DNA from: an uncultured Clostridia bacterium | GTDB taxonomy: Bacteria; Bacillota; Clostridia; Oscillospirales; JAAYOS01 | Assembly: GCA_947631015.1 (NCBI GenBank) | Contig: CANRJS010000001.1 | Coordinates: 95,561 to 159,560 of the forward strand | Length of the DNA stretch: 64,000 bases | Direction: 5' to 3' | Shown: positions 2,309-21,254 of the stretch, in pieces | Layout: every line of letters starts with the position of its first letter | Numbering within the stretch: the first letter of the stretch is position 1 | The notes under the pieces: generated by a model | Database searches by the model: none | What the model saw: only the letters and a program-made list of their open reading frames with translations | What the model was told of the DNA's origin: nothing | Made by a program: the position numbers and the translations under genes

Positions 2309-2345
2309 AAAAAAGAAGCAGTCCCAAAGGGACTGCTTCTTTTTT
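2309..2345 (-). terminator. bidirectional intrinsic terminator, probably the pre-insertion ssrA terminator
   Basis: A6, then an 11-bp perfect stem GAAGCAGTCCC/GGGACTGCTTC (2315-2339), then T6. It directly abuts the orphan tmRNA 3' fragment. Confidence 0.8.
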
Positions 2346-2371
2346 GGTGGAGGCGGGGGGGAGTTGGACCC
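2345..2371. repeat. attL: orphan copy of the last 26 nt of tmRNA
   Basis: TGGTGGAGGC-G7-AGTTGGACCC. It is identical to 14829-14854 except for one extra G in the G run. Confidence 0.85.
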
Positions 2372-2419
2372 GCTGTAAACTCCCCCAAACCCCTTGCGCC
2401 CCAACGCTTTCACAAATCC

Positions 2420-2431
2420 GTGTGCATTTCC
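2420..2431. promoter_or_regulatory. putative integrase arm-type box (P arm)
   Basis: GTGTGCATTTCC lies 50 nt inside attL and matches the GTGTGCATTTTC triple repeat at 14671-14706. Confidence 0.5.
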
Positions 2432-2437
2432 CCCCCC

Positions 2438-5400
2438 TCACGGCGTCGGCAGACTCACCCACTCCGGCACATCTTCCTCCTCGCGGTTGAGCCTGTCCGC
2501 GACCTCCTCGCCGAGCCTTGTGTCATACGGGTTTTTCTTCGGCGACCAGTTCTTAGCCTGCGCCTGCCAAAGCACGGCCTTCTCCTCGCGCGTGAGCTGC
2601 TTCATACTGCCGAGCGCGTCCGCGACCTCTGCCTGGGTGTAGCTTCCGTTCCCGTCGTCGTAGTCCGGCAGCGCCTCCATGAGCTCGGTCCAACTCTCGG
2701 AGCTCACGCCGAACTCTCCCGCCGCCGCGACCTTGTCGTAGGCCGCCTCGGTGAGGACGGTCTTCATCGCCGCGAGCCTCGCTTCTTCTATATCAGTCGC
2801 ATTCACGACCGCGCGCATCTTCTCGGCCTTCGTCATTTCGTCCCCCTCGATCTCGCGGAGCAGCTCGAAGGCGTCCCTCTGCCCCATGCCGGCGTCGGTC
2901 ATCTCGCGGTAGGCCGTGGTCTGCTTTGCGGAGAGACTGTCAAATCCGCTTCTCACCCAGTCCTGCGCCGTGTCGAGCGAGCTCTTGCCCATTATCATCG
3001 ACTTCACGACGTCCCAGAACGAGCCCGCGCCCTCGTCCGTGTACTCCGGGTACTGAAGAATGTCCTCGCCCTTGGAGTTTACGGTGTAGCTTCCGCCAGC
3101 GGCGCTCGTCGCTGCGCCCTCTATTACGCGCCGGACGGCTCCGCCTCCGGCGGGCGGCAGGAGGTAAGTGAACGGCTTCGAGAGCTCGTCCGCCGCCGTC
3201 TTCCGGCGCTTCTCCGGCGCCCAGTCGGGATTTGTCGCGGCGCTCCAAAGGTTTGTGAAGCTCGGTTTTGCGCTGCTTACCGGAATACGCCCGCCCCCGA
3301 GCAGGCCGCCGACAAACGGCAGCTCCTCCGCGACGTTCTTTGCGAGGTTCTTGCCGGCTCCGTAGACGCCCTCCTGCTCGGTCTCAAAGCTCGGCATGTC
3401 CCCGGTTATCGCTCCTTTTGCGAGCCGGAAGACATTCGGCAGCTCGTAGCCGGTGAGGTCCCCGACCGTGTCGTTGAGGATGCCTATCGGGTCGAGCGCC
3501 GGGCGGTAGCCCGTCAGCAGCTCGCTGGCCTCGTTGAAGAGCCACGCCCCTATCGCGAACTTGAGCAGCGCCCACGCGAGGCTTGCCATGCCCTTCTCCC
3601 TGTGTTCGCGCGGAACGTCCTTCATTAAGTAGCTGAACTGATTGTTGACTTCAAGCTGGAACTGCGTGAAGAGCTTCGTCACGGGATTTGCGCGGCTGAA
3701 GAGCGTCGGCATGGAGCCCTTCGACCGCGCCGCCATGACTCCCGCCGCCCACGCGTCCGCCTCGTCCATCGCGCTCTGCTCGGAGAGGCCGCGCTTCACG
3801 TTCTGCGCGTACCGCGCGCGCACGAGCGTCTCGCTCGAGAAGCGGTCTACCGTCTCCATCAGGTCGCGCGCCATGCGGAGCGGCGTCTTCCCGACTATTT
3901 CCTGCGTCCTCGTCTGCACGAGCCGCTCGCTCCCGCGGCGGTTCGTGAGGAACTCGCTCATGTCCGAGAAGTCGTCTAGCGGCATATTGTCCGAGAGCGC
4001 TTCGATGATGCCGCCGACGCTCCACCCGCCGTTCCTTACCGCCTGCATGAACTTGGCGCGCGGGCTGTGCGCCTTGAGCGTGTCCCACATTCCGCGCAGC
4101 ACCGTCCCGCCTCCGAGGTCCGCCCAGCCCTGGGTTATCGGGATGAAGTTCGTCGTGGCGCTCCGGACGTTGAAGCCGACCATGTTCGCACCGACACGGC
4201 TCTCGAGCGCCTTGAGTACGTTGTACATCCCGCGCCCGGCGTCCGCCTCCATCTGACGGTCCGCGCGGCTCTTCTTCCCGGCAAGGAGGTTCGTGTACTC
4301 ATCTATCCACCCCGCGAAGTTGCTGAGCTCATACGGTCCTTTATCCACCTTGGTGCGTATCTGGTCCTGCTTTTCCTCCTCGGTGAGCTTGTCGTCCGCC
4401 CGTATCCTCTCGATGTCTGCCTGAATGCTCTCGTCCGTCGTCCGCTCTCGCGTGGCCGTGGCGAGCGCGCGGAGGCGCTGTATGTCGTCCGTGTGCCATA
4501 TCACGTCCGCCGCGACCTCGAGATAGCGGTCGAAGCCCTCTACCGCGTCGAAGGTAGTGGCGTTGCCCTTCCGTTCGAGCGCCGCGCCCATCCAACGTAT
4601 ACCCGGCTTGAAGTCCTCGGTCCTGCCGTTTATCGTCGTCGGGAGGTTTGTCACCTCGGTCTGCACGCCGAACGCCTTTCCGAGCCACCCGAGCACGCCG
4701 GAGCGCTGCTCGCTTTGGAAGTGCGGGAAGTACCCGCGCCGGTAGCTTATCGGCTCGTAGCCGTTTCGGACGCGCACCTCGTTTATCTTCTTGAACAGGT
4801 AGTCGTAGAGCTCGCGGAACGTCTCGACGGCGTTCTCTATCTTCGCGCGGTCGATGTTCGGGTTCTCCTTCCACGCGTTTTCGAGCGCGCCGCGCCACTC
4901 TTCGAGCGTCATGCCGCCGCGCTTCGCCTGCGGATCGCGCGCGTTCGCGCCTGTCGAGAGGACGGCTATGTTGTCCTCCGCCTCGCCGACGAACTGCACC
5001 AAAGCGGCCGCGCTCATGCTGTTCCCCTTCTTCACTCTGCGGGAAAGGTTGAGCTCGCGCACCTTGTCGCGCAGACGGTTCTTCATCTTGGTGCTCTCGG
5101 CCTCGTTCTTGTGTACCGGCGTGAAGTAGGTGTCGATGATCTCCTGCGCCTTCTCGTCGTCTCCGACGACGTCGCGGACGTTCCGCTCCGCCGTCTCGCG
5201 GGAATACAGGACGCCCATCTTCTTGTCGTGCCACTTCTCCGCGCCCTTGAGCATCTCCTTCGCTTCGTCGCGAAGCGTGGCCGCGCGGCCTTCGTTGTAC
5301 TCGCGGAGCTTGCCGACTATTTCCTCGTGTTTGCGTGCGGCCTCATAAACTGCCTGTATCCCCTTGACGTTATCCTTTGCGGGGTCAAGGTCTTCGATCT

Positions 5401-8400
5401 GTATGTCCCCCTTGAGCAGGCGTCCGACCTTTGTTTTGTCCTCGTCGATAAGCAGATTCCGCGCCTTGGCTTTTTCGAGTGCGCGGCGCGTCTCCTTCAT
5501 CTCAGCATAGAGCGCCGCTGCTTCCTCTGCGGTCATTGACCGGAGCTGCTTTCTCGCCTCCCTTGCCGCTTCCTCAGCGGCTCGTTTTGCCTCGCTCGCC
5601 TGTGCGTATCGCTTTATGTCACGGAGCTTTGGCACCGTATCGTAGACCGCCTCGTTGAAGTTGTGCCGGAGTATGCTCTTGTACGCCTCGGCATTTGTCC
5701 CGCCGTTCTCGTCCAGAGTGCGCTCGGTTCGCGCTATCGCCTGTGAGACAAACGCCATTCTCTCAATGCGGTTTATTTCACCCGTTATACTTTCGGGGAA
5801 CAATTCGGGCGCCGCCGAACTCAGTTCCTCGTAGAAATCACCCGCCGAACGCGCCGTACCGTCCGCGGCGTTCTCGGCTTTTACAAGCGTCAACCGGCCA
5901 AACACGCTTTTCCGGAACTGCTCCCAGTTCGGCATGCTCTCTCTAAGCTCCGGCCCTACGCTTATCTTTGTATCTCGGAGATACGTTTTCACCGGCTTGT
6001 ACATCTCGTAGAACGCGCTGTCGATTATCCTGCCCGCATTGTATGCCTGCTCGAATGCGTCCGAAAGCGACTCCTCCGAAATGCTTCCGTTCCCGAGATA
6101 TTCGTCCGCAAGCGTCTCGACAAGGTTTCCGACGACGGTTCTCTGTGCGGCCTTCGGAATCGAGAGTGCGTTCCCTATCGCGGCGCGCATATAACTTTCA
6201 GCCGAACGCAGATAACTCCGCGCCTTTGTCGGCAGCTTTGCCCGTTCGGTTCCGGCGGCATCGGCAGTTTCTCCGCTTTCCGCAGCATCCGGGGCGGTAT
6301 TGTCTCCGTTTCTTTTGCGGAAGAAATCTGCCCACATCTCATTTTCCACCATCTGCGCCGGTATCCTCTGCCGTTCTTCTTCGTCCCGTTCTGCTCTTAT
6401 TTCCGCATCCTCCCTTGCAAGGTTTATCGCATTCTGCCTCGCAGCGGAGAGCTTAGAGAGTGACGAGTCTACCGCGTCGTCGAAGTGGTGGCGCATAAAC
6501 TGCCTGTCTATCTCCTCCGACAGTCCGTTTCCCGCCGCTTTTCTCGCTGCGCCCTCTGCTGCTCTGACCGTATAAAGAAGCCGCGAAAGTTTGTCTGCCG
6601 TGTTGAGCTCCTCGCTATGACCATTCCCGTCCGATATTATGTCCGGAAGCATCTGCGGATCTATTCTCTGCGCTTCTTTGTAGACTTCGCGGAAGGGGAT
6701 TCCGTTTTCCCCGAAAGTCATCAGCCCGGAGGCGCTTCGCTCAAAGCTCGCCCAATGCTCCATTTCTGCGCGCTCTTTCGGGTCAACCGCTATTGTCACG
6801 CCGCTCACATAGTCCTTTATTTTCCCATACTTTTCGGCAACCTCGCTTTCGCTCTGTCTTGTCGCTTCATACGCTTTATCAAAGGCCGTATTTCTCGCCT
6901 CATCGGTGAGTGTCCCCGATTTATAATAGTTTTGTGCAAGCTCGCCTACCGCTTCGCCGATTATCTCGGCTTGAACGCCGCGCGGTACTCCGAGGCTGTT
7001 TCCGACCGCGCGGAGCAGATAAGTCTCCGCGCTTTTCAGTTCCTTTCTTGCTGAGTATGGAAGATGGCTCTGTGCCGGAAGCGTTTGTTCTTCCGTTCCC
7101 GCATCTGCATTTTCTGCTATTTCACGGCTCTGCACATCTGTGTCCGGCGACGGAAGGTGTATCCACTCCGGCCACGCATCCTGCTCTGCGGACGGCTCGT
7201 TTGCCTCAAGGCTATTCCAGTCTTCATCCTCCGACAGCTCGCGCCCCTCGCTGTCCTCGCTGATGCTGTACTCAGGGACACTCGGTTTCGGAATATATTT
7301 TGCAGCGTCACCCTTGACAAGCGCGAGCAAATCCTTTACACTAATTGTAGAAGAAGATTCCGAAGGGTGCTTAACGGCGACGTTTGTCGCGTCCGTGGGT
7401 GCTGAACTGGAGGAATCTTCTTTTTCTATTTCTTCCAGTACGAGCACATTACCATCATACAGGCTTGCATAAGTCTCTGACTGCATCTTGTCCTCAAGGT
7501 ATTCCCTGACTGTTCTCGGAATATCCTGTCCGGCAAGATTATATTCTTTGACCTTCAGCTTTACCGGTTTACTCCCTTGCTCTGTCCTCGCAGCAGCGAA
7601 AAGAGTATACACTCCGGTAGTATGGTCTCCGGGTGCGTTTCTGCTCTGCTCAGCGTGGGTAAATACTGCTTCTTCCAAAAGCTCCCTCAGATGCTTAGCT
7701 ACACCGATCTGGTCTCTGCCAAGGTTGGAAAACGTATGTGTAATACTCTGCGGTGTAATGAATATACTCTCGCCCGTATCCCGGTTCACTACCGGCGCGG
7801 AATACATCTCACGAGCTGCGTCGCTTGCGAGGAAAGCCCGCCGCTGCTCCGCTATGCGTTCGGTGCTTGTCCCCCGTATGTCCACTATGGCTATGTCCGG
7901 CTTCGCTATCAGGTCTTCATAAGTCGGTTCGCTGACTTCCGAAAAGCTGTACTCCGGCCCGTTTCTGAGCGCGTCTTCGGCGCTGTAATTCTCGTCGAAC
8001 TCGCGGTCGTACTCCTCCTCGCTCATCTCTCCCGCGGCGAGGCGCTCCCCGGCCTGACGCAGTCTCTCGCGGCGCGTCTCGGCGGCGGTCTCCTCCGCGC
8101 GTGCGGATACTGCCGCGTCCGCCCTCGCCCTCGCATCGACGGTGCGCCGTCTCGCGCGCCCCTTGACGTTCTCCGCGTCATCCAGAGCGCGGGCATACAG
8201 ATTGACCGCCCGGCGCACGAACGCGCGCTCGCGCGCCGCGTCGCTTCCGAGCTTCGCGAGAAGGGAGTCGAGCCGGTTTTTTATCCGGACGGCGAGCCCG
8301 CGGTTCTCCCGCACCATCCTGATAACGGCGTCCTCGTCTGTGAGGAGGTGCTTTTCGATGTACTCCGCGACGAGCTCGCGGTCTACGGCGGCGTTGTCCG

Positions 8401-11368
8401 CAAGCGCCGCGCCGCTTCTCTCGTAGAGCGCCGCCTTCTGCTTCCTCGCGTCCTCCACACTCTCGCCGCTCTCGCGCATCCGCGAGAGCACCATGTCCGA
8501 GAGCTGACTGTACAGCTTGGAGCCCTCTAGCGAGTGCGTCAGCTCGTGGCTTATTATCTGCGCCACGGGGTTTCCGCTCTCCGCGTTGACGTATATCACG
8601 CCGCCCTTGTAGTACCCGTTCGCTCCCGCGGCGGTGCTGCTCTCCGCCGAGCGGCTGTCGTAGAAGCGCACCTCCCGCCCGACGGCGCGGCTTATCCGCT
8701 CCGCCGCCGATATGTCCTCGTCCCTCGCGCCCGCGAGTATCCCTGTTTTCTCGACCTCGCTCCGCGCCAGGGCCGCGCGGTTGCGGCGGTTGAACTCCTC
8801 GCCCACCGTCAGCGGCATGGGCTCCGCCGAAGTCGCGCTTCGCTCCGGCGAACTCTCGCTTCGTTCCTGCGAAGTCCCGCCGCTTTCCCGCGCTCTGTCC
8901 CATTGGCGCGTAATCTCATCCGAGAGCGTCTGCGCCGTCGGACGCGCCTGTTCCGTGTTGACATTCTGTCCCGGCTGTGATATACTATCATTGAAAGAAC
9001 CAGACGACGGCACGTTTCGGACGTTCTCCCCAGGGGCGGAAGCAATTCCGGCATTGGGGGTCGTATCAGTAGGTTCTTTCTTTTTTTGTACCCACATGGA
9101 GTCTGTCGCCAGCGCGTGCCGCCCGTCCGTTACTGCCTGCGCCGTGACAATGTTGTCCCCGATTTGCTTTTCAAATATGAGGACTTGCCGACCATACGCA
9201 TCTGTATCCGGAGAAAGAGCCACAGAATCAGGCGCAGCGAGCACCTGCGAGATCAGGGGGAAGTCGTCCGGTGTTACCGCCCGTTGCCCCCTTGCGGCCT
9301 CGGTCCGCTCGTTGCCGTGGTGATTGAAGATATGCTGTACCACGCTCCCTTGCAATATCGCGTTGTAACCCGCGACGTTGACGCCCGTGGACTCCATTAC
9401 CGTCTGCGCGGCGGAATCGGGTATCGTACCCATATAGAGCCGCTCCGAGCCGCCCTTCTTCCTCAAGGCATTTCGGACAAACGCGACAATATCGTCTTTT
9501 GTCCTTGCGATGATGTTGTTTTTCCCTGTCGCCAGACGGCTTGCCGCCTTTTCCGACACGGGCACTAGCTCAGGCACCGCTTCCGCGTTTTCGCTCTGCC
9601 GCACCTCCGCAGCATTTCCGGCTTCCTGCTGCACCTCCGCAGCGCGTTCCGCCGCCCTCGCGCGGCGGTTTATTGTGCCCTGATATATCGAGCCGGGCGC
9701 GCCCATAATACCGCCGGAGATCATTCCGCCAAGTACGTCCATGCCTATATCGCCGAGTTTGTCCGCCATGGCCTGTCCGAAGGCTTTGCCCTCGCTCATG
9801 CCCTGTTCTTCGTATTTGCGGACAGCCGTGCGCCACTCGCTTTCGTCTCCCGCGATAAGCACGTCAAAGAACGTGTTGATTATGTTGGACGCGCCTTCCT
9901 CGCTGCCTTCCACCCCTACCTGAGCGAGCCAACGAAGGAACGCGCTCTTTCCCGGTTCCGCTTTCTTGAACAGTTGGTCGAGGCTGAACTTCTCGGTGAA
10001 CACCTCGGCAGCTCCGGCAATAATACCGAGCGCAAGCGCCTGACCGTCTCCGAGACCGCGGTCAAGCGCACTCTGTACCTTGCTCGCGCCCGCGTCCGCG
10101 GCCATAAGCGCGAGACCCGAACCTTCGCCGAACAGCACTCCGCGCATGGCGTTGTCGCCGATGCTCATCAGCTGGTCATACGCATACGCCCACCCCGAGC
10201 CGTAATTCTCTGTTATGTACTCGTTTACGGCGCTTCTTGCCGCCGTCGTCCGGTTTATCGAGCTGTAATAGCCCGCGTCCCGTTCAAGCCGCCCGTCCTC
10301 GAGGAAGTCCCCGATTGCTCCGGCGGCAGGCGCTATTCCCCTGTACGGGGAGAGCATGACGCTCGCGATGCTCGTCCCTACCGGGTCCTCTTTTGCGTAC
10401 TCGGCCATCCTCTGCTCCTCGTACTCGCGTTCCCGCGCGTTGAGGCTCCCGCCTGTGTAATTCGGGTCGGTCGCTATGAACTCGATAAACTCGTCTGCGG
10501 CTGCTTCTCCCTGCTTGTTATACAGGTAGTTGTAGATAGCTATCTCGTCCGGCGTCATGCGCTGGAGGCGGTCGCTGCCTATGCCCGCCTCCGATATTCC
10601 GAGGAGCTGTTCGTTTGCTCCCGCAACGTCCCGCGCCGCCTCGTTGCCGTTTATGTAGTCATACTTCACGTCTCCGAAGCCCGTGTCGGTGTACATCCCC
10701 GCGAGCGCGTTATACTTCGGCTCGCCGTGCTGTGTGCTCCTATACTGCGACGCCGCCGCGAAGTCCGGCTCCCGCATCAGCGCGGCGTATTCGGCGGCGC
10801 GCTTGCCGGTTGCCTGCTTCGCTTTCGCGTCCTCGAGTAGGTTTTCCGCGGCCTGCCTCCGCTCGTAGTCGCGGCTCGTCTCGTAGGCGTTTATCCTCTC
10901 GGCGATGTCCCGCGCGCGGTTTGCCTCCTCGTCCGAAACGACGTGGCTCTCCGCGCGCTCCCGCATCTGCTTCTGCTCGTTCTTCAGCCGCTCGTACTCC
11001 TGCGCCTCCGGCGTCGCCGTGACCCGCCGGACGGTGTTCCGCGCGCGGTTGCGGCTGTCGAAGTCGTCCCGGCTCGCGCCGTACTTCGCCGCCCTCTCCG
11101 CCGCGTAGTTCCAATTCGAGTATTCCGTCTGCCGGGCGGCGCTTTCGCTCCGCTCGGCTTTTCTCGCCGCTATTCTCTCTTCCGCCTCTGCCCGCGCCGC
11201 AGTCTGCCGCTCCTGTATCAGCTTCTGCCTGTCGCTTGCAGTACCGGCAGCGGTGCCGGAGGCGGCGGCCTTCCGCCCGGCTATTCTCTTTTGAGCGTCG
11301 CTTCTTGCCGTTGCCTGCCTCTCCCGAAGGAGATTCTTCCGTTCTTCTTCCGTAAGCCTTACCGCCAT
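2438..11368 (-). CDS. giant polyvalent-type protein (2976 aa) with a zincin HExxH module
   Basis: An uninterrupted 8.9-kb ORF with SD GAGGTG 5 nt before the ATG. It has a HELTH motif (nt 8534-8548), two globular nuclease/LPD-like modules, an internal roughly 215-aa duplication and Gly-rich hydrophobic segments. Confidence 0.85.
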   Translation of the reverse strand: MAVRLTEEERKNLLRERQATARSDAQKRIAGRKAAASGTAAGTASDRQKLIQERQTAARAEAEERIAARKAERSESAARQTEYSNWNYAAERAAKYGASRDDFDSRNRARNTVRRVTATPEAQEYERLKNEQKQMRERAESHVVSDEEANRARDIAERINAYETSRDYERRQAAENLLEDAKAKQATGKRAAEYAALMREPDFAAASQYRSTQHGEPKYNALAGMYTDTGFGDVKYDYINGNEAARDVAGANEQLLGISEAGIGSDRLQRMTPDEIAIYNYLYNKQGEAAADEFIEFIATDPNYTGGSLNAREREYEEQRMAEYAKEDPVGTSIASVMLSPYRGIAPAAGAIGDFLEDGRLERDAGYYSSINRTTAARSAVNEYITENYGSGWAYAYDQLMSIGDNAMRGVLFGEGSGLALMAADAGASKVQSALDRGLGDGQALALGIIAGAAEVFTEKFSLDQLFKKAEPGKSAFLRWLAQVGVEGSEEGASNIINTFFDVLIAGDESEWRTAVRKYEEQGMSEGKAFGQAMADKLGDIGMDVLGGMISGGIMGAPGSIYQGTINRRARAAERAAEVQQEAGNAAEVRQSENAEAVPELVPVSEKAASRLATGKNNIIARTKDDIVAFVRNALRKKGGSERLYMGTIPDSAAQTVMESTGVNVAGYNAILQGSVVQHIFNHHGNERTEAARGQRAVTPDDFPLISQVLAAPDSVALSPDTDAYGRQVLIFEKQIGDNIVTAQAVTDGRHALATDSMWVQKKKEPTDTTPNAGIASAPGENVRNVPSSGSFNDSISQPGQNVNTEQARPTAQTLSDEITRQWDRARESGGTSQERSESSPERSATSAEPMPLTVGEEFNRRNRAALARSEVEKTGILAGARDEDISAAERISRAVGREVRFYDSRSAESSTAAGANGYYKGGVIYVNAESGNPVAQIISHELTHSLEGSKLYSQLSDMVLSRMRESGESVEDARKQKAALYERSGAALADNAAVDRELVAEYIEKHLLTDEDAVIRMVRENRGLAVRIKNRLDSLLAKLGSDAARERAFVRRAVNLYARALDDAENVKGRARRRTVDARARADAAVSARAEETAAETRRERLRQAGERLAAGEMSEEEYDREFDENYSAEDALRNGPEYSFSEVSEPTYEDLIAKPDIAIVDIRGTSTERIAEQRRAFLASDAAREMYSAPVVNRDTGESIFITPQSITHTFSNLGRDQIGVAKHLRELLEEAVFTHAEQSRNAPGDHTTGVYTLFAAARTEQGSKPVKLKVKEYNLAGQDIPRTVREYLEDKMQSETYASLYDGNVLVLEEIEKEDSSSSAPTDATNVAVKHPSESSSTISVKDLLALVKGDAAKYIPKPSVPEYSISEDSEGRELSEDEDWNSLEANEPSAEQDAWPEWIHLPSPDTDVQSREIAENADAGTEEQTLPAQSHLPYSARKELKSAETYLLRAVGNSLGVPRGVQAEIIGEAVGELAQNYYKSGTLTDEARNTAFDKAYEATRQSESEVAEKYGKIKDYVSGVTIAVDPKERAEMEHWASFERSASGLMTFGENGIPFREVYKEAQRIDPQMLPDIISDGNGHSEELNTADKLSRLLYTVRAAEGAARKAAGNGLSEEIDRQFMRHHFDDAVDSSLSKLSAARQNAINLAREDAEIRAERDEEERQRIPAQMVENEMWADFFRKRNGDNTAPDAAESGETADAAGTERAKLPTKARSYLRSAESYMRAAIGNALSIPKAAQRTVVGNLVETLADEYLGNGSISEESLSDAFEQAYNAGRIIDSAFYEMYKPVKTYLRDTKISVGPELRESMPNWEQFRKSVFGRLTLVKAENAADGTARSAGDFYEELSSAAPELFPESITGEINRIERMAFVSQAIARTERTLDENGGTNAEAYKSILRHNFNEAVYDTVPKLRDIKRYAQASEAKRAAEEAAREARKQLRSMTAEEAAALYAEMKETRRALEKAKARNLLIDEDKTKVGRLLKGDIQIEDLDPAKDNVKGIQAVYEAARKHEEIVGKLREYNEGRAATLRDEAKEMLKGAEKWHDKKMGVLYSRETAERNVRDVVGDDEKAQEIIDTYFTPVHKNEAESTKMKNRLRDKVRELNLSRRVKKGNSMSAAALVQFVGEAEDNIAVLSTGANARDPQAKRGGMTLEEWRGALENAWKENPNIDRAKIENAVETFRELYDYLFKKINEVRVRNGYEPISYRRGYFPHFQSEQRSGVLGWLGKAFGVQTEVTNLPTTINGRTEDFKPGIRWMGAALERKGNATTFDAVEGFDRYLEVAADVIWHTDDIQRLRALATATRERTTDESIQADIERIRADDKLTEEEKQDQIRTKVDKGPYELSNFAGWIDEYTNLLAGKKSRADRQMEADAGRGMYNVLKALESRVGANMVGFNVRSATTNFIPITQGWADLGGGTVLRGMWDTLKAHSPRAKFMQAVRNGGWSVGGIIEALSDNMPLDDFSDMSEFLTNRRGSERLVQTRTQEIVGKTPLRMARDLMETVDRFSSETLVRARYAQNVKRGLSEQSAMDEADAWAAGVMAARSKGSMPTLFSRANPVTKLFTQFQLEVNNQFSYLMKDVPREHREKGMASLAWALLKFAIGAWLFNEASELLTGYRPALDPIGILNDTVGDLTGYELPNVFRLAKGAITGDMPSFETEQEGVYGAGKNLAKNVAEELPFVGGLLGGGRIPVSSAKPSFTNLWSAATNPDWAPEKRRKTAADELSKPFTYLLPPAGGGAVRRVIEGAATSAAGGSYTVNSKGEDILQYPEYTDEGAGSFWDVVKSMIMGKSSLDTAQDWVRSGFDSLSAKQTTAYREMTDAGMGQRDAFELLREIEGDEMTKAEKMRAVVNATDIEEARLAAMKTVLTEAAYDKVAAAGEFGVSSESWTELMEALPDYDDGNGSYTQAEVADALGSMKQLTREEKAVLWQAQAKNWSPKKNPYDTRLGEEVADRLNREEEDVPEWVSLPTP

Positions 11369-11377
11369 ATCCGCACC

Positions 11378-12250
11378 TCACAGAACTCCGACATATTTTT
11401 TCGTGCTCCCGCATACGTTGTTGCCGTATTCGTCCACGTCAATGACAACGACTTCGCCGCGCGCCAGCATCTCGTCGAGGTCTTCCTGTGTCACCCTGCC
11501 GTAGCCCTCCACCGTGACATAGCTTCTGCCGGACGGGGTTTTCCCGCTCGTTTCATTCGGCACGTTCTTCAACTCCTCCGAGGCTCTGCGCGCCTTCTCG
11601 GTCTTGTAGAACTCCCACATCTGTTCTATCTGGCTCTGTGTCCAGCCCTGCCTTACGAGATATTCATACGCCCGAGCGTCGTCGCCGTAGGAGATCATCG
11701 CGTCGATGAGGCTCTGCGTCTCGCCGTTCTCCGCGCTCTCGGAGCTCCCGCTTCCGCCGCTTCCGCTCGCCGCCCTCGCCGCACGGTCAAGCGCGTCCTG
11801 CCGGAGGTTATAGTCCCATTCGCGCTGACGCCATTCGTCTTCGACTGCATCCCTTCCGACGCCGTAGTCGAACTCCTTCTGCCTCCACTCGTCGTCGAGG
11901 GCGTCCCTCTGCGCCTGATACTCGCGGTCAAGGCGGTCCTGCTCGCGGTTGTAGGCCGTCTCGTCCTCGTAGCGGCGGCGGTCCTCCTCTTCGAGCAGCC
12001 CCGTGTGATAGCGGTCATAGTCGGTCTGCTCCTGACCCTGAAGTGCCGCAAGCGTGCTCTGCATCCGGCTGTAATCGTCCAGATACTGCCCGTAGGCGAA
12101 ATTGCGGTCGGCGTTGTACTGGTTGAGCTCGTCGAGGTACTTCGCGTACTCGTTCTGCTCCTGCGTGTTGACGTCTCCGAGCGCCTGCCGCTTCATCGAG
12201 TAGTCGTCCAGATACTTCTGATATGCCTGCTGGTAGAGCTGCGGGATCAT
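11378..12250 (-). CDS. aromatic/acidic repeat protein (290 aa), function unknown
   Basis: Its TGA stop overlaps the SD of the giant gene, indicating translational coupling. It has periodic D/E-x-Y/W repeats, including DEWRQKEFDY and DEWRQREWDY. There is no SD before ATG 12250, so the start is uncertain. Confidence 0.6.
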   Translation of the reverse strand: MIPQLYQQAYQKYLDDYSMKRQALGDVNTQEQNEYAKYLDELNQYNADRNFAYGQYLDDYSRMQSTLAALQGQEQTDYDRYHTGLLEEEDRRRYEDETAYNREQDRLDREYQAQRDALDDEWRQKEFDYGVGRDAVEDEWRQREWDYNLRQDALDRAARAASGSGGSGSSESAENGETQSLIDAMISYGDDARAYEYLVRQGWTQSQIEQMWEFYKTEKARRASEELKNVPNETSGKTPSGRSYVTVEGYGRVTQEDLDEMLARGEVVVIDVDEYGNNVCGSTKKYVGVL

Positions 12251-12500
12251 GTCATTCAGCTGCGCCGCATAGTAGTCCCCGGCCTGTCCCGCGGCGGCGA
12301 CGGCATAGCTCGAGGGACGTCCCGCGCTCGCGGCGTGCTCATCTCGCTCAACCCTGACTATTCGCCCGTCCCCATGACCGAGGATACCTGGTGCAACGGC
12401 CGCGTCATAGGCGTCCTCGACCCCTCCGACATCGCCCGGCTCTGAGAGTACAGCCGCAACATCTTGTTTACAAGTGAATAACCCAGCCTATATCTTGCTG

Positions 12501-12529
12501 TTGATTTTTTGCTTCTCCCCGCGTATAAT
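12501..12529 (+). promoter_or_regulatory. near-consensus sigma-70 promoter facing the tandem repeats
   Basis: TTGATT (12501-12506), 17-nt spacer, TATAAT (12524-12529). No ORF follows it. Confidence 0.5.
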
Positions 12530-12600
12530 ATAGACGTGGAGTGATCCACGGGTGAGAATGTAACGCCCAATCGCCGTTATCATCTTCACCACTCGTCCAA

Positions 12601-12710
12601 GCGGAGAGTCCGAGCCGAAAATCGGAACCGGAAAAAGCGGTGAGCTCCTGCCGTTAAACGGAGCCTCAAAAAAGCGGAGAGTCCCTGCCGTCAAGTGGGA
12701 ACCGGAAAAA
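12601..12710. repeat. three tandem 36/37-nt repeats with covarying stems
   Basis: The units are 12601-12636, 12637-12673 and 12674-12710. Each starts GCGG(A/T)GAG and ends in A5-6. Internal stems are TCCGA/TCGGA, GCTCC/GGAGC and TCCC/GGGA. Confidence 0.75.
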
Positions 12711-12744
12711 GCAAGATTGGCATCACTGCCGGTCTTGCTTTTTT
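12711..12744 (+). terminator. intrinsic terminator, also usable on the minus strand
   Basis: Stem GCAAGA..GGCA-TCAC-TGCC..TCTTGC followed by T6 (12739-12744). A5 precedes it, so the reverse strand also reads as a hairpin followed by a T run. Confidence 0.65.
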
Positions 12745-12769
12745 CTGTCGGGAAAACTCACGAACACAT

Positions 12770-12798
12770 ATTTAAATGTTTGTATTTCCTCTTGACAA
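12770..12798 (-). promoter_or_regulatory. possible leftward promoter of the 290-aa/giant-gene operon
   Basis: On the minus strand: TTGTCA, 17-nt spacer, TTAAAT. Its -35 box overlaps the -35 box of the hicA promoter (back-to-back arrangement). Confidence 0.3.
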
Positions 12799-12820
12799 AT
12801 ACTTTTATATGTGTTATTAT
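12792..12820 (+). promoter_or_regulatory. hicAB promoter
   Basis: TTGACA (12792-12797), 17-nt spacer, TATTAT (12815-12820). SD GGAGGGGAGG lies before ATG 12843. Confidence 0.65.
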
Positions 12821-12842
12821 TGTTTTGTCAGGAGGGGAGGAT

Positions 12843-13040
12843 ATGAAAAGCTACTCATCGCGGGAGGTCATTAAGATTCTGAACGCGGACGGATGGTACG
12901 AGGTCAGATGTGTCGGCGACCATCACCAGTTCAGACATCCGACGAAGCCCGGGCTCGTCACGGTGACTCACCCGGTCAAGGACATCCCGAGAAGGACCCC
13001 CGGCAGCATAGAGAAGCAGGCCGGCATCAAGCTCCCCTGA
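12843..13040 (+). CDS. hicA: HicA-family mRNA interferase toxin
   Basis: 65 aa: MKSYSSREVIKILNADGWYEV...GDHHQFRHP...VTVTHP. This is the typical HicA length and motif pattern. The internal ATG of the 107-aa ORF was chosen because of the SD. Confidence 0.85.
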   Translation: MKSYSSREVIKILNADGWYEVRCVGDHHQFRHPTKPGLVTVTHPVKDIPRRTPGSIEKQAGIKLP

Positions 13041-13080
13041 TGCCGGCGCTCCCCCGATTTTCTCGAAAGGAGCTATTGAT

Positions 13081-13482
13081 ATGGAGAAGACCTACTACTC
13101 TTATCCCGCTTATTTTTACTACGATGAAGACGGCATATCCATCGAATTTCCCGACCTTCCCGGCTGTCTGCCCTGCGGTGCCTCCACCGAGGAGGCTTTC
13201 AAAAACGCCAGGGAAGCGCTCGGCCTTCACCTGTTCGGGCTGGAGCAGGAGCACGAGCCCATCCCGGCGCCCACGCCCGTGAAGGATCTTCATCCCGAGC
13301 CCGGCGCAGTCGCCGCCATGGTGGAGGTCTATATGCCGTCCGTTCGCTATGCCGCTGTCAACAAAGCGGTAAACCGCACCGTCACCCTCCCCGCATGGCT
13401 CAACGCCGCGGCGGTCGAGAGAAACGTCAACTTCTCGCAGGTGCTTCAGGACGCGCTGAAGCGTCAGCTCGGCGTGCGATAA
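13081..13482 (+). CDS. hicB: HicB-family antitoxin with a C-terminal RHH/CopG-like tail
   Basis: 133 aa. The N-terminus (YPAYFYYDEDGISIEFPDLPGC...EEAFKNAREAL) is HicB-like. The C-terminus (NRTVTLPAWLN...FSQVLQDALK) is ribbon-helix-helix-like. Confidence 0.85.
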   Translation: MEKTYYSYPAYFYYDEDGISIEFPDLPGCLPCGASTEEAFKNAREALGLHLFGLEQEHEPIPAPTPVKDLHPEPGAVAAMVEVYMPSVRYAAVNKAVNRTVTLPAWLNAAAVERNVNFSQVLQDALKRQLGVR

Positions 13483-13484
13483 AC

Positions 13485-13521
13485 AAAAAAATCTCCCCCG
13501 GGGCGGCCACCCCGGAGGAGA
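13485..13521 (-). terminator. strong minus-strand intrinsic terminator between hicB and int
   Basis: A 12-bp stem TCTCCCCCGGGG/CCCCGGAGGAGA with one mismatch. On the minus strand it is followed by T7 (plus-strand A13485-13491). Confidence 0.55.
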
Positions 13522-13611
13522 CGTGCAAAAGTCGTATACCCACAAAGCACGGCACCTTTGCGCCCTTATTGTACCACACGGGGCGCTTCGGTGCAAGGAG
13601 AAGGAGAAAAT

Positions 13612-14664
13612 ATGCCCCGCAAATCGAAAATAAGAGTTCCCGAGCCGACACGCCTCCCCTCCGGGCGCTGGAGGATACAGCTCCAGATAGACGGCCGGCG
13701 TCTCTCCGTCACGGAGGACGACCCGAAGGAGTGCCAGGCTCGAGCCGTCGCTCTGAAGGCCGGCCTCATAGAGCAGGCGGCGAAACCGAACCGGATAACG
13801 CTCCGCGCCGCGATAGATAAATATATCGACTCGCGCTCTGCCGTCCTCTCGCCCTCCACGATACGCGGCTACCGCGTCATCCAGCGCAACAGGTTCAAGG
13901 CGCTGATGGATAGGCCGGTTTCCGAGATAACAAAAGAGACGATGCAGCGCGCAGTAAACTCGGAGGCCCGTCGGCTCTCCCCCAAAAGCGTAACAAACGC
14001 GTACTTATTTGTTTCGTCGGTTATCTATAATGAGACAGGGAACCGCTATGATGTTGCCCTTCCGCGCCTCATGCCGCACGAGCGGCCTTTTCTCTCGGCC
14101 GATGAGATCACCGTGCTGCTCAATGCTATCCGCGGCACCGAAGCCGAGGCGCCCATACTGTTTGGCCTGCAAAGCCTCCGCCGGTCGGAAATCCTCGGGC
14201 TTCGGTGGTGCGACGTGGACCTCGCTCGCGGCACGGCACACATCCGGCACACCCGCGTCCAAGGTGAAAAAGGAATGGCGGACAAGAACACAGCGAAGAA
14301 CAGTTCGTCCTACCGAACCATTCGACTGCCTCAAAGACTCGTTGATCTCCTTCGCGATATGCCTCATGGTGATGACGACAGCGAACGCATCTTCTCCTTC
14401 GGCCCCAACTATATAAGAGCCAATGTTAATCGAGTTTGTAAGCGTCTCGGCCTTCCGGAGGTAGGCACGCACGGGCTTCGGCACAGCTTCGCCTCGCTCG
14501 GCTATTACCTCGAAGTTCCGGCGAAGGTCATTCAGAAGGCCGGCGGATGGTCGGACGATCACACCATGCTGAAAATATATACCCATGTCTCCGAGAAGTA
14601 CGTCGAGCGTCAACGCACGGCGCTTAGTAACTTCTTCGACGAGGCCGACAAGCCCACCGGGTGA
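13612..14664 (+). CDS. tyrosine recombinase / phage-type integrase
   Basis: 350 aa from the ATG that follows SD AAGGAGAAGGAG. Catalytic signature: LRRSEILGLRW (R), HGLRHSFAS (H-x-x-R), GWSDDHTMLKIYTH (W/H and Y). Confidence 0.9.
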   Translation: MPRKSKIRVPEPTRLPSGRWRIQLQIDGRRLSVTEDDPKECQARAVALKAGLIEQAAKPNRITLRAAIDKYIDSRSAVLSPSTIRGYRVIQRNRFKALMDRPVSEITKETMQRAVNSEARRLSPKSVTNAYLFVSSVIYNETGNRYDVALPRLMPHERPFLSADEITVLLNAIRGTEAEAPILFGLQSLRRSEILGLRWCDVDLARGTAHIRHTRVQGEKGMADKNTAKNSSSYRTIRLPQRLVDLLRDMPHGDDDSERIFSFGPNYIRANVNRVCKRLGLPEVGTHGLRHSFASLGYYLEVPAKVIQKAGGWSDDHTMLKIYTHVSEKYVERQRTALSNFFDEADKPTG

Positions 14665-14670
14665 TTCGCC

Positions 14671-14706
14671 GTGTGCATTTTCGTGTGCATTTTCGTGTGC
14701 ATTTTG
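14671..14706. repeat. three tandem 12-bp GTGTGCATTTTC boxes (putative integrase arm-type sites, P' arm)
   Basis: Perfect head-to-tail copies at 14671, 14683 and 14695, lying between the int stop codon and attR. A related copy lies at 2420-2431. Confidence 0.6.
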
Positions 14707-14828
14707 TACCTCGAAACGGCTGTAAATACCTTCTCAGTTTCAAAACCCGTTTCGCGGCGGCGAAAGCTGAAACCGTTGCGAGAGTAGGATTAGAGCCCGA
14801 AACCTTTGCGGTTTCGGGCTCTTAAAAA

Positions 14829-14854
14829 TGGTGGAGGCGGGGGGAGTTGGACCC
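14829..14854. repeat. attR core (inside the functional tmRNA 3' end)
   Basis: TGGTGGAGGC-G6-AGTTGGACCC, the direct-repeat partner of 2345-2371. Confidence 0.85.
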
Positions 14855-15179
14855 CCGTCCGAAAACACTTCCTCGTGATCTTCTCCGGGTGCAGCCGAAT
14901 GTTTAAGTTTCCCTCCCCGCATCGCCGATCGGCGGGCTATGCGGGTAGGTAGTCCGATAATTCATGCACCCCGCTCAGGACGTTGCGGGGGCACGTTCAC
15001 CGCTTAGTCACGCCCGAGCCGGAGCCGCGGTACTCTCCGGGCGGACGGCAGCCTTTAGTTAGGCCGCGTAAGCAAGACTATTGTCGTTACTTAATTTATA
15101 AAGGTTGCCCTTTTAACGTGGTGGGCGCCACGACCCGCTTATCACGCACCCGCGTCCCCGTCGAAACCGGTACGCCCCC
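14829..15179 (-). ncRNA. ssrA: tmRNA (transfer-messenger RNA)
   Basis: On the minus strand the 5' end reads GGGGGCGTACCGGTTTCGACGGGGAC and the 3' end reads GGACGGGGGTCCAACTCCCCCCGCCTCCACCA. The acceptor stem has the G3:U pair. The tag ORF ends ...SNDNSLAYAA-TAA (stop at 15059-15061). Total length is 351 nt. Confidence 0.92.
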
Positions 15180-15940: not shown

Positions 15941-16408
15941 TTACCTGTTTCGCGATTTCATCACTCTGTCCATCTCGCGCTTCGCGTCCCGCTCGGCGGC
16001 GGCGGCGCGCTTGTCGTGCAGATGCTTGCCCTTCGCGAGCGCTATTTCGACCTTAACGCGCGGCCCCTTGAGATACACCGATATCGGCACCAATGTATAT
16101 CCGTCCTGCTCGACCTTTGCCGCGAGCTTCCAAATCTCCCGCTTGTGCAGGAGCAGACGCTTGGGACGGAGCGGGTCGCGGTTGAAGATGTTTCCCTTCT
16201 CGTATGGGCTGATGTGCATACCGCGCACCCACATCTCGCCGTCCTTAACGGTACAGAACGCGTCGCGCAGGTTGACGGCGCCCAGACGTATCGACTTCAC
16301 CTCGGTGCCGTACAGCTCCACGCCCGCCTCGTACCTGTCCTCAATGAAATAGTCGTGGAACGCCTTGCGGTTGGTGGCAAGGCTCTTGATATTCTCTTTC
16401 CCGGCCAC
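15941..16408 (-). CDS. smpB: SsrA-binding protein SmpB
   Basis: 155 aa: NRKAFHDYFIEDRYEAGVELYGTEVKS...LLLHKREI. It lies 0.8 kb from ssrA. Confidence 0.95.
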   Translation of the reverse strand: MAGKENIKSLATNRKAFHDYFIEDRYEAGVELYGTEVKSIRLGAVNLRDAFCTVKDGEMWVRGMHISPYEKGNIFNRDPLRPKRLLLHKREIWKLAAKVEQDGYTLVPISVYLKGPRVKVEIALAKGKHLHDKRAAAAERDAKREMDRVMKSRNR

Positions 16409-20976: not shown

Positions 20977-20989
20977 CTGCTAAACCGTT

Positions 20990-21254
20990 GAAGAAGAGTA
21001 AGTAGGTCTTTTCCCTTTTCTCAAAGAGAGCCGCGGGCGGTGGGATCGCGGCAGAAAACATCAGACCGAATGGGCTTCCGAGGGCGCGGTGAAAGGCGTA
21101 TGGCGCCGAGTAGCATGCGACGTGTTGGCATACGTCAGTTGCCGGGGATATGCCTGTATCCCGCTAAGTGCGCGGCCTCTGCGCCGCGAATCAGGGTGGC
21201 ACCGCGGATCATATTCGCCCCTGACAGAAGATGATCTTCTGTCAGGGGCGTTTT
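20990..21254 (+). promoter_or_regulatory. T-box riboswitch leader, Trp (UGG) specifier
   Basis: AGAGAG box and GGTGGGA are present, with GAA-TGG-G in the specifier region. The T-box sequence AATCAGGGTGGCACCGCGG lies at 21189-21207. The terminator stem is 21217-21249, followed by T4. Confidence 0.85.

Follow-up and report, generated by a model that had tools for sequence, protein, structure and literature searches.

A giant phage-type polyvalent protein gene in a probable defective prophage at the tmRNA gene of an uncultured Clostridia bacterium

A gene for a 2976-aa protein of the phage polyvalent type dominates a 12.5-kb island at the tmRNA gene of an uncultured Clostridia bacterium. The island is probably a defective prophage in the 3' end of ssrA, left by one internal deletion, in which the giant gene would now be idle. 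The puzzle it poses, a virion-delivered giant protein without a virion, would have its answer in a common form of prophage decay: the giant gene appears isolated because the prophage lost nearly everything else in a single internal deletion. The locus itself is ordinary, and the wider yield of the analysis is the definition of a family of giant proteins, very large and unnamed, in phages of gut Clostridia. All coordinates are those of the window, the whole 64,000-nt stretch of DNA that was analysed.

Results

Boundaries and content of the island

The island extends from about 2345 to 14854 and has the tmRNA 3' end on both flanks as a direct repeat of 26/27 nt. The features at its two ends are as follows.

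2345..2371, no strand: attL core, the final 26 nt of the tmRNA in a displaced copy that has one extra G (TGGTGGAGGCGGGGGGGAGTTGGACCC)
2419..2429, + strand: candidate arm-type integrase site, a lone CGTGTGCATTT motif lying between attL core and stop of the giant gene
13612..14664, + strand: tyrosine integrase, 350 aa as called in public assemblies (Pfam Phage_integrase, 1e-15)
14670..14704, + strand: candidate arm-type sites, with CGTGTGCATTT(T) three times in tandem after the integrase stop and ahead of the attR core
14829..15179, - strand: intact tmRNA gene (ssrA), Rfam RF00023, 158.6 bits, full model 1-374

The attR core is the 3'-terminal 26 nt of ssrA itself (14829-14854), and smpB lies at 15941-16408. 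A run of ARAGORN did not detect the tmRNA, although Rfam RF00023 finds the full model. The attL copy was missed by searches for the att core, exact or with 3 mismatches, owing to the 1-nt indel, and was found by direct reading of the sequence. To the left of the attL core, reading of the sequence also gave a hairpin followed by a T-run, which we take to be the original ssrA terminator; a terminator scan of 2200-2500 did not flag it. An ORF of 205-208 aa called across attL (1787-2413) was rejected as a gene, as it overlaps the att core and the terminator and lacks a coding-type GC3 signal. When read from its first start codon (TTG), the integrase ORF opens at 13558. The CGTGTGCATTT motif has four copies in the 64 kb, all at the island ends, and none of 100 shuffled sequences reached four. 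A tmRNA 3'-end repeat on both sides, with a tyrosine integrase adjoining the intact tmRNA, is the arrangement of a prophage or island integrated in an RNA gene. With integrase, both att cores and candidate arm sites looking intact, excision may still be possible.

Only five genes are left in the remnant, 71% of which is the giant ORF. Apart from this gene, the island contains a gene fragment, an RNA repeat array, hicAB and the integrase; no replication, regulator, small-terminase, packaging, capsid-redirection or recognisable pac/cos function was found in the island. The 40 other large ORFs scanned in the window are housekeeping genes or have no Pfam match, and the 10 kb past its left edge hold no phage genes; the earlier note had seen no particle or transfer apparatus, and this extended scan agrees. 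Megablast of positions 1-25000 against phage and plasmid collections gave no match.

The same arrangement occurs in at least five independent assemblies. Assemblies compared for SNPs differ at just 2 positions of the island, too few for a test of selection. Metagenome scans for an empty attB junction and for this tmRNA found nothing, and a look-up with the neighbouring PPIase gave contigs that either carry the island or stop at the tmRNA. No intact parent phage of the island is known.

The giant protein

The gene and the parts of its product are listed below.

2438..11368, - strand: giant polyvalent protein gene, ATG start, 2976 aa, intact
9659..10768, - strand: conserved N-terminal domain with Gly/Ala-rich hydrophobic segments, aa ~200-570
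9077..9406, - strand: PBECR3 (Barnase/EndoU/ColE5-D/RelE-like RNase) domain, Pfam PF18812, aa 655-764
7958..8833, - strand: predicted zincin-like HExxH...E module, aa 846-1137, with HELTH at nt 8534-8548 and E998 as third ligand candidate
7541..7816, - strand: LPD3 domain, Pfam PF18798, aa 1185-1276
5624..7123, - strand: two paralogous ~220-aa helical modules, aa 1416-1640 and aa 1697-1915
2489..5581, - strand: all-alpha C-terminal core, aa ~1930-2960, conserved

The layout read in the earlier note from the letters alone proved accurate. The ORF is real and starts with ATG, and every motif named lies within 3 nt of where it had been placed. The duplicated RQATAR.../RQTAAR... motif occurs at aa 17 and again at aa 54; the Gly/Ala-rich hydrophobic segments GIAPAAGAIG, ALALGIIAGAAEVF and DVLGGMISGGIMGAPGS fall within aa 344-560; HELTH occupies aa 941-945, exactly as first read; and the hydrophobic helix SLAWALLKFAIGAWLF covers aa 2596-2611, nt 3536-3583 (3533 at first reading). 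Of the modules proposed there by recognition, the PBECR-type nuclease is Pfam PBECR3 (E=5e-16, 59 bits against a cut-off of 30), and the second LPD-like module is LPD3 (E=6e-8, 33 bits against a gathering cut-off of 27). The two modules judged homologous, at about 215 aa, are true paralogues with 31% identity (BLASTP, E=7e-31), and both align to one single region in homologues.

The N-terminal domain matches phrog_22978 (profile length 3513, unknown function; E=1.6e-55) and is kept in about 118 of 119 homologues. Neither it nor the C-core of about 1000 aa has a Pfam model, and the giant protein gave no useful match to NCBIfam or to PDB sequences. In the C-core, alignments show the invariant motifs GY.P.....GYFPHF (aa 2203-2217), EYTNLLAGK (aa 2357-2365) and FQLEVNN (aa 2570-2576), together with one TM-like helix (aa 2593-2612). 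Its AF2 model (pLDDT 70) has helices almost throughout. Foldseek against BFVD matched C-terminal pieces of giant polyvalent proteins from uncultured Caudovirales (E=7e-34 and 1e-21), while Foldseek against the PDB gave nothing significant. The proposed resemblance of the C-terminal 1000 aa to ejection, internal-virion or tape-measure proteins thus stood in part: the region is all-helical with one hydrophobic helix, a tape-measure signal is absent, and the likeness to ejection and internal-virion proteins comes from synteny only.

In the HExxH module, H941, E942, H945, E948 and E998 are invariant across 12 homologous segments. In the AlphaFold model (pLDDT 86.5) a helix and three strands precede the HExxH helix, and more helices follow it, in the local order H44-57, E60-64, E80-82, E85-89, H95-107 (HExxH), then H153-169; E998 (local E159) sits in this last element, the third helix past the HExxH helix. 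An HExxH helix after a three-stranded sheet, with a downstream Glu on a later helix, is the zincin order. As to sequence profiles, Pfam MPTase-PolyVal (PF18818), the family to which the note had likened the module, gave no match at E<=1 with the whole protein or with the 12 homologous segments; the only Pfam matches were weak and sub-threshold (DUF6782 putative metallopeptidase, 7e-5; DUF6055, 3e-5; eCIS_core, M91 and M76). Foldseek against the PDB returned none with E<0.5, a search in which the long helical tail dominates the model, and a PDB profile search gave spurious helical matches only. A zincin-like peptidase is predicted from the model and the invariant residues.

PBECR3 and LPD3, with the HExxH module, place at least two domains of the polyvalent network in one large polypeptide. 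These Pfam domains, the homologues and the BFVD matches of the C-core support the classification of the giant protein as a phage-type polyvalent protein, as had been proposed.

The family and its gene order in related phages

The family comprises about 2,700 clusters at 50% identity (2,720 match the C-core) and was found in 144 GTDB species genomes, its hosts being Oscillospiraceae and other Clostridia. The nearest homologue is 48-50% identical over about 40% of the length. Sequence comparison describes a giant, unnamed family with a fixed N-terminal domain and an all-helical C-core that has no solved relative, between which polyvalent effector modules are swapped; ART-PolyVal, PBECR5, LPD23 and PF18819 (which we take to be MuF-C) occur in other members. 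The giant protein of the island retains 132 of the 139 positions invariant in other family members, which is inside the range of other singleton lineages.

Homologues with enough context lie in Clostridia phages and prophages of about 40 kb that carry terminase, P22-type portal and capsid genes. The order of genes is Gp58-like, 127 aa, 535 aa, 543 aa and giant, and it is complete in about 30 loci with upstream context. The Gp58-like gene, four upstream of the giant gene, has needle and virion-structural PHROG matches; the 535-aa gene, two upstream, is phrog_511 'internal virion protein' (E=1e-81); the gene immediately before the giant gene encodes 400-540 aa; and the giant gene closes the late operon. 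The homologues stand beside needle and internal-virion-protein genes, and this synteny puts the family in the ejection-protein block. The virion and packaging setting was seen for the homologues; in the island only one truncated neighbour of the block remains.

In the closest relatives (L007) the giant gene is the last late gene and adjoins the prophage end, and in two other loci (L034 and L035) an integrase homologue lies directly downstream of it on the opposite strand. The nearest integrase with context (48% identity) is found in temperate phages, and the layout in integrase relatives is a toxin-antitoxin or defence gene with the integrase, the presumed attP, and the end of the late operon. 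A scan of the viral_contigs set with the integrase gave one distant match, which was of no use.

The truncated gene and the probable deletion junction

Upstream of the giant gene lie the following.

11378..12334, - strand: 5'-truncated gene, whose homologues of 511-543 aa in related prophages stand before the giant gene; only the part from their residue ~186 is present
12335..12450, no strand: deletion junction zone, where phage structural gene homology ends on one side and att-proximal intergenic homology to a related phage begins on the other

Read from its start codon, the ORF covers 11378-12250 (290 aa), and its residue 2 aligns by BLASTP to residue 215 of the 543- and 511-aa phage proteins. 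The 28 codons of 12251-12334 are homologous and in frame and have no start codon. In a tblastn search, residues 186-359 of the 543-aa protein corresponded to 12334-11822 of the window, with no match further upstream. In the other loci, about 30 in number, the alignment to the upstream gene opens at reference residue 1-6 in about two thirds; the exceptions start at 34-60 in three loci and at about 130 in a few distant ones. Every such locus whose contig extends that far has the phrog_511 gene upstream, and among loci whose contig reaches its position the 535-aa gene is absent only in the window's own copies. On the far side of the junction, the intergenic DNA of 12500-12750 is about 75% identical to the matching DNA in the phage of one integrase relative. 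Each end of the island has its counterpart in one of the two att-proximal ends of related temperate phages. A scan by consensus match found no sigma-70-like promoter on the minus strand upstream of the truncated or the giant gene.

A toxin-antitoxin module and an orphan repeat array

Between the junction and the integrase are three features.

12501..12744, + strand: orphan ToxI-like array with promoter-like site, tandem repeats, and hairpin with T-run
12843-13040, + strand: hicA, 65 aa (Pfam HicA_toxin, 1e-17)
13081-13482, + strand: hicB (Pfam HicB_lk_antitox, 2e-13)

A strong sigma-70-like promoter at 12792-12820 precedes hicAB. The array consists of a promoter-like site (12501-12529), 3.1 tandem repeats of 36-37 nt (12599-12712) and a hairpin with T-run (12711-12744). 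An array that precedes a ToxN gene in a related phage locus (L091) shares about 75% identity with it, and a 4-bp stem is preserved through compensatory changes in all 4 pairs. Repeats, promoter and terminator of a type III (ToxIN-like) toxin-antitoxin system are present and ToxN is missing; the 64-kb window holds no toxN gene. An Rfam E-value search with the repeat region gave chance matches only, and a pattern for the ToxI-like unit proved too strict and matched nothing in the loci, known copies included.

Discussion

The upstream gene is 5'-truncated at the breakpoint, the phage genes that should precede it are absent, and the island ends match the att-proximal ends of temperate phages, from which we conclude that the island is probably a remnant. 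A prophage would have integrated in the 3' end of ssrA, and one internal deletion, with its junction at about 12335-12450, would then have taken the other late genes, the replication genes and the immunity region. At one end a lysogeny-side accessory module (the ToxI-like array and hicAB) would have been retained with the integrase, and at the other the last 1.6 genes of the late operon. In the parent phage the giant protein was presumably packaged in the capsid and left it with the DNA, the N-terminal hydrophobic domain and all-helical C-core perhaps serving packaging and ejection. The swappable middle would supply effectors for the first minutes of infection, namely the PBECR3 RNase, LPD3 and the zincin-like peptidase, the last of which probably cleaves the giant polypeptide itself. 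In the island the protein would be undeliverable and is most likely silent.

In old junk one would not expect an 8.9-kb frame free of stop codons and frameshifts, which points to a recent deletion or to selection on the gene. The data suit both, and we lean to the former: the giant gene shows no decay, the deletion is probably recent, and the intact frame need not signify a new function. The earlier note had left three explanations for the isolation of the protein, of which the remnant is favoured by the truncation, the missing genes and the att-proximal ends; neither the hitch-hiker nor the toxin or defence effector found support, as there are no satellite genes and no PADLOC match.

A minimal satellite would be excised by its own integrase and packaged by a helper of the same family, the polyvalent protein riding in or competing for helper capsids. 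The intact integrase, att cores and candidate arm-type sites suit such an element, as do an intact giant ORF with the family's invariant residues, and hicAB could stabilise it. Phage satellites (PICI, P4-like, PICMI), however, carry their own functions for replication, for regulation and for helper exploitation or packaging, and the island has no replication, regulator, small-terminase, capsid-redirection or recognisable pac/cos function. Its only other coding sequence is a fragment without the first ~185 codons, the arrangement recurs in none of about 50 loci in other genomes with usable upstream context, and the one other odd locus (L042) is likewise a truncation. Scans of the 64-kb window and of 10 kb beyond it gave no other phage genes. 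We regard a satellite as very improbable. Domestication, in which the host would express the protein to act as toxin, as abortive-infection or exclusion factor, or as decoy poisoning the assembly of related phages, is likewise very improbable. It would account for an intact ORF with no excess loss of conserved residues, for the predicted RNase and peptidase within the protein, and for the adjoining conflict genes (the toxin-antitoxin module and the orphan array). But no PADLOC defence model was matched, no promoter-like site lies upstream on the strand of the giant gene, there is no secretion or immunity partner, and the architecture equals that of homologues in virion modules; the known copies, being near-identical, give no evidence of selection.

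The least credible reading, to which we give practically no weight, is an ordinary tail tape-measure protein from a siphovirus or myovirus remnant. The protein is long, mostly helical and Gly/Ala-rich with hydrophobic segments, as such proteins are. The earlier note had set against its own reading a full-length tape-measure protein devoid of peptidase and nuclease modules; profile searches instead gave PBECR3 and LPD3, and no tape-measure family in Pfam, PHROGs or NCBIfam. Homologues have P22-type portal and internal-virion-protein genes as neighbours and do not occupy a position between tail chaperone and distal tail genes, and the true tape-measure gene (PhageMin_Tail) of L091 is unrelated to the giant gene. 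A remnant kept because it is useful would be compatible with the intact 8.9-kb frame, integrase and att sites and with the lack of excess change at conserved positions. The giant protein might be made in the lysogen and get into or obstruct capsids when a phage of the same family superinfects (Trojan-horse exclusion or piracy), or the ToxI-like RNA array might neutralise a ToxN-type abortive-infection toxin encoded elsewhere; we think either very unlikely. A defective prophage with an idle giant gene remains by far our preferred reading.

Its place in the ejection-protein block makes the family a candidate for how podovirus-like phages of Gram-positive hosts join DNA delivery with early host takeover. 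The orphan ToxI-like array stands where a related phage has a complete ToxIN-like locus, and could be a lead to RNA-based counter-defence.

Comparison with known systems

Like the phage-type polyvalent proteins described by Iyer, Burroughs, Anand, de Souza & Aravind (2017, J Bacteriol, PMC5512222), the giant protein links PBECR, LPD and HExxH peptidase modules in one polypeptide and has homologues in virion gene blocks. It differs from them in that the HExxH module has no MPTase-PolyVal match, the N-terminal domain and C-core have no Pfam model, and this copy lies outside any phage. The 2811-aa polyvalent protein gp47 of the Stx phage phi24B, a podovirus, has LPD domains and a metallopeptidase, was detected by virion proteomics and is a proposed ejection protein (bioRxiv 10.64898/2026.04.10.717836). 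By description the two are alike as giant proteins with LPD and metallopeptidase domains, whereas phi24B has other LPD types, a Gram-negative host and an intact phage. Prophages phi1 and phi4 of Clostridium clostridioforme LM41 have an LPD3-like ORF of about 8 kb as the last gene at the 3' end, about 20% of the genome (PMC11318856). Again by description, these share with the island a Clostridia prophage setting and a terminal position, as in L007 and as we infer for the parent of the island; the LM41 prophages, however, are complete.

In phage P22 the ejection (E) proteins are gp7, gp20 and gp16, and the needle is gp26. The phages of the homologues, with their P22-type portal, resemble it in the order of a needle-like gene, a small gene, an internal-virion-protein gene, one further gene and, closing the late operon, the giant gene. 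Unlike the E proteins, to which no similarity was found among PDB sequences or folds, the giant protein contains effector modules, and its size is about 5 times theirs. CP4-57 of E. coli K-12 is a cryptic prophage at ssrA, and as in that element the integrase adjoins an intact tmRNA, the opposite end has a copy of the tmRNA 3' end and most functions of a phage are gone; the present island differs in being down to five genes, with 71% of it in one ORF.

Island layout and attachment sites

The island of about 12.5 kb is a cryptic prophage of a familiar kind at the tmRNA gene, ssrA.

Features of the island and its surroundings (window positions)
2345-2371, attL core, repeat of the last 26 nt of the tmRNA with one G more
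2419-2429, one copy of CGTGTGCATTT, between attL core and the giant gene stop
2438..11368, minus, giant gene, ATG start, 2976 codons
12501-12529, plus, promoter-like site
12599-12712, plus, 3.1 tandem repeats of 36-37 nt
12711-12744, plus, hairpin with T-run
14670-14704, three tandem copies of CGTGTGCATTT, between integrase stop and attR core
14829-14854, attR core, last 26 nt of the tmRNA, TGGTGGAGGCGGGGGGAGTTGGACCC
14829-15179, minus, tmRNA, complete (Rfam)
20979-21225, plus, T-box leader (Rfam, 98 bits) preceding the trpE-trpA operon; ordinary

Along the plus strand the island carries the giant gene (-), a 290-aa ORF (11378-12250, -), the tandem repeats, hicA and hicB (+) and a tyrosine integrase (+). 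The integrase and the tmRNA are separated by 165 nt, and smpB lies just beyond the tmRNA. The stretch after the attL core looks like the original ssrA terminator. All four copies of CGTGTGCATTT in the 64 kb are at the island ends and in one orientation, a number reached in none of 100 shuffles, and they are plausible candidates for arm-type integrase sites.

The earlier note had described the giant gene as the sole large cargo, with no particle or transfer apparatus, and this was correct. The 40 ORFs scanned elsewhere in the window are housekeeping genes, including a trp operon with T-box, glutamine and glutamate synthases and ABC transporters, or are without a Pfam match, and public contigs contain no phage genes in the 10 kb past the window's left edge.

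Just outside attL, a gene for an ABC transporter with permease and ATPase fused (262-1890, +) has 48% GC, compared to about 60% for the genome. BlaI/BlaR1-like genes come after it in public contigs, and it may have been acquired separately. Between this gene and attL (1965-2340) is repeat- and hairpin-rich intergenic DNA with two similar units of about 100 nt (GAGGAATTGGTTCGCGCCCTCGCGGTTCGC...), and the 205-aa gene called over it and the att core by public annotation is probably spurious. At the other side, three contigs from related samples (Logan ERR10663674, ERR10663677 and ERR10663676; L094, L095 and L097, respectively) stop about 76 nt past the PPIase gene, where the tmRNA gene starts or just short of it. 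These ends might conceivably mark an assembly-graph branch, with the island both present and absent in the population.

The proposed deletion junction

The 290-aa ORF is a homologue of the gene preceding the giant gene in comparison loci L007 (543 aa) and L006 (511 aa). It aligns only from residue 215 of those proteins (35-36% identity, E=1e-22 and 2e-19). By tblastn, in-frame homology runs a further 28 codons upstream of its ATG, to residue 186 at window 12334, and no start codon is present in those 28 codons. Upstream of 12334 tblastn found none of the missing block, ie the first 185 or so codons and the 535-aa, 127-aa and Gp58-like genes. The block is complete in about 30 other loci reaching far enough upstream, all of which have the phrog_511 gene; in approximately two-thirds of them the 543-aa-type gene aligns from reference residue 1-6 onward, and in some distant loci from further in.

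Window 12500-12750 is about 75% identical to intergenic DNA just upstream of an accessory toxin gene in a temperate-phage contig, L091, with weaker similarity extending back to about 12450. The two integrases are 48% identical. In L091 and a second contig, L090, an accessory TA or defence gene and the integrase lie on one side of the presumed attP; on its other side is the late operon end, holin and endolysin, on the other strand. In two further loci (L034 and L035) the giant gene is followed directly by an integrase homologue on the other strand. The parent prophage would have run from attL and the giant gene through the other late genes, the early genes and the immunity region to the accessory module, the integrase and attR, and everything from the middle of the second-last late gene to the accessory module would have been lost. 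A single deletion that joined the two sides at about 12335-12450 is sufficient to account for the island. The identical arrangement is found in at least five independent assemblies, and is therefore not a mis-assembly. A remnant was among the explanations offered earlier, and the 5'-truncated neighbour, the missing upstream block and the att-proximal ends, which are as in relatives, bear it out.

The repeat array (12501-12744) is about 75% identical to L091 9240-9432, where an array immediately precedes a Pfam ToxN_toxin gene. Across the six repeats, compensatory changes in all four pairs preserve a 4-bp stem in the repeat unit. There is no toxN in the window, hicAB standing in its place. The orphan ToxI-like array could be what is left of a type III TA locus that was replaced, or it could act in RNA-based counter-defence.

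Domains of the giant protein

Features of the giant protein
aa 17 and aa 54, duplicated RQ..AR motif
aa 344-560, Gly/Ala-rich segments
aa 941-945 (nt 8534-8548), HELTH
aa 2203-2217 (window 4718-4762), GY.P.....GYFPHF, strictly invariant, C-core
aa 2357-2365 (window 4274-4300), EYTNLLAGK, strictly invariant, C-core
aa 2570-2576 (window 3641-3661), FQLEVNN, strictly invariant, C-core
aa 2596-2611 (nt 3536-3583), hydrophobic helix SLAWALLKFAIGAWLF

By domain content this is a phage-type polyvalent protein (Iyer et al. 2017). All motifs quoted in the earlier note were found, none more than 3 nt out of place. Two of its domain names were upheld by Pfam: PBECR3 at aa 655-764 (E=5e-16, 59 bits against a cut-off of 30) and LPD3 at aa 1185-1276 (E=6e-8, 33 bits against 27). 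The two homologous modules of about 215 aa are true paralogues (aa 1416-1640 and aa 1697-1915, 31% identity, E=7e-31). A PHROGs profile of 3513 positions and unknown function, phrog_22978, matches aa 54-567 (E=1.6e-55).

HExxH is retained in all 16 closer homologues, among which the module at aa 846-1137 is conserved, and an alignment of 12 segments shows no variation at H941, E942, H945, E948 or E998. In the AlphaFold model from that alignment (pLDDT 86.5) a helix is followed by three strands, then by the HExxH helix and, later, by the helix bearing E998, the same order as described for zincins (PMC5512222). The module does not match Pfam MPTase-PolyVal, and neither a PDB profile search nor Foldseek against PDB gave anything meaningful. 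Other zincin-type Pfam families match below threshold (DUF6782 'putative metallopeptidase', 7e-5; DUF6055, 3e-5; eCIS_core; M91; M76). By motif and predicted topology, aa 846-1137 is zincin-like.

A word-indexed search with the giant protein gave 392 homologues of 2400-4000 aa; exhaustive phmmer with the C-terminal 1047 aa matched 2,720 clusters at 50% identity, 1,625 of them at E<=1e-30. Relatives occur in 144 GTDB representative genomes, and those listed are nearly all Clostridia MAGs (Oscillospiraceae, Butyricicoccaceae, Faecousia, Anaerotignum, Christensenellaceae). Two separate parts are conserved: nearly all of the 119 homologues listed share aa ~300-570 and aa ~1700-2960. Few share aa 600-1400, and the homologues' variable middle holds other polyvalent modules (ART-PolyVal, PBECR5, LPD23, PF18819). 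The conserved C-terminal part, or C-core, is predicted to be nearly all helix (pLDDT 70) and has no relative in PDB. In BFVD it matches C-terminal pieces of giant polyvalent proteins from uncultured Caudovirales (E=7e-34, 1e-21 and 7e-12), with 22 further matches below 1e-3. About 100 of its columns are invariant across 38 sequences, and the three motifs in an otherwise plain helical domain suggest a specific binding or catalytic site. The conserved scaffold of this very large Clostridia-phage family (N-terminal domain and C-core) has no name yet.

State of the giant gene

The giant gene's frame is intact. In a leave-one-out comparison its product departs from 7 of the 139 columns invariant in the other 19 sequences (5%), inside the 4-10% range of other singleton lineages. 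Over 12.5 kb the known island copies differ by 2 SNPs, too few for a selection test; the one in the giant gene is synonymous and the one in the 290-aa ORF is non-synonymous. A consensus scan of the minus strand from the junction to the giant gene found no promoter; those of the repeat array and hicAB are strong and point the opposite way. PADLOC gave no match for any island protein. We therefore read the gene as probably a recently stranded, silent passenger; that the remnant is functional and kept by selection seems very improbable.

There is similarly little to recommend a domesticated toxin or defence factor, an option in the earlier note, since the consensus scan gave no promoter on its strand, it has no partner gene, and PADLOC matched no defence model. 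The integrase and att sites look functional, as would be expected of a phage satellite, but the island is without replication, regulation and packaging functions, one of its 'genes' is a fragment, and the layout was not seen again in about 50 loci of other genomes, making a satellite highly unlikely. The sole other odd locus, L042 8050-16717 (Clostridiales bacterium UBA4696, DHKK01000152.1), is a second deletion-type arrangement and also a truncation. There, an integrase (-) and a hicB homologue are directly upstream of a giant-gene homologue lacking its first ~430 codons (ORF 2256 aa), with tail-like genes still downstream. The C-terminal 1000 aa had also been likened to tape-measure-like proteins; domain content and gene context contradict this, and the chance of a tape-measure protein is negligible.

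Comparison with phage relatives

The virion context of polyvalent proteins is found around the homologues, and only vestigially at the island. The P0086 clade (L003-L005), in contigs of about 35-42 kb, has the order terminase, phrog_511 protein, P22-type portal, capsid, two small genes, a 395-aa gene and the giant gene, followed by tail-like genes, an amidase and a serine recombinase. In the clade nearest the window (P0002 and P0012; L006-L009 and about 25 GTDB loci) the order is holin and amidase or M23 peptidase, Gp58-like, ~127-aa, ~535-aa, ~543-aa and giant gene, then the prophage end, or small genes and an integrase. Beside tail-fibre-like genes (Big_3, DUF6273, CBM_5_12) in two of these relatives of the parent phage type is an RVT_1 reverse-transcriptase gene (L007 2333-3097, L009 105-2039), presumably of a diversity-generating retroelement.

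PHROGs identifies the 535-aa protein as phrog_511 'internal virion protein' (E=1e-81) and matches the Gp58-like protein to 'tail needle' and 'virion structural protein' families. In P22, genes 26-14-7-20-16 encode the needle and then the ejection proteins, and the P0002/P0012 late genes are reminiscent of this in order only. From synteny, we infer that the giant-protein family is packaged and ejected. The phi24B protein gp47, of 2811 aa, combines LPD domains with a metallopeptidase; proteomics showed it to be abundant in virions, yet the reconstruction does not reveal it, and a role as ejection protein was proposed (bioRxiv 10.64898/2026.04.10.717836). Prophages of C. clostridioforme LM41 have an LPD3-like ORF of about 8 kb at the 3' end (PMC11318856). 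Both sets of published data agree with a virion or ejection placement of the homologues.
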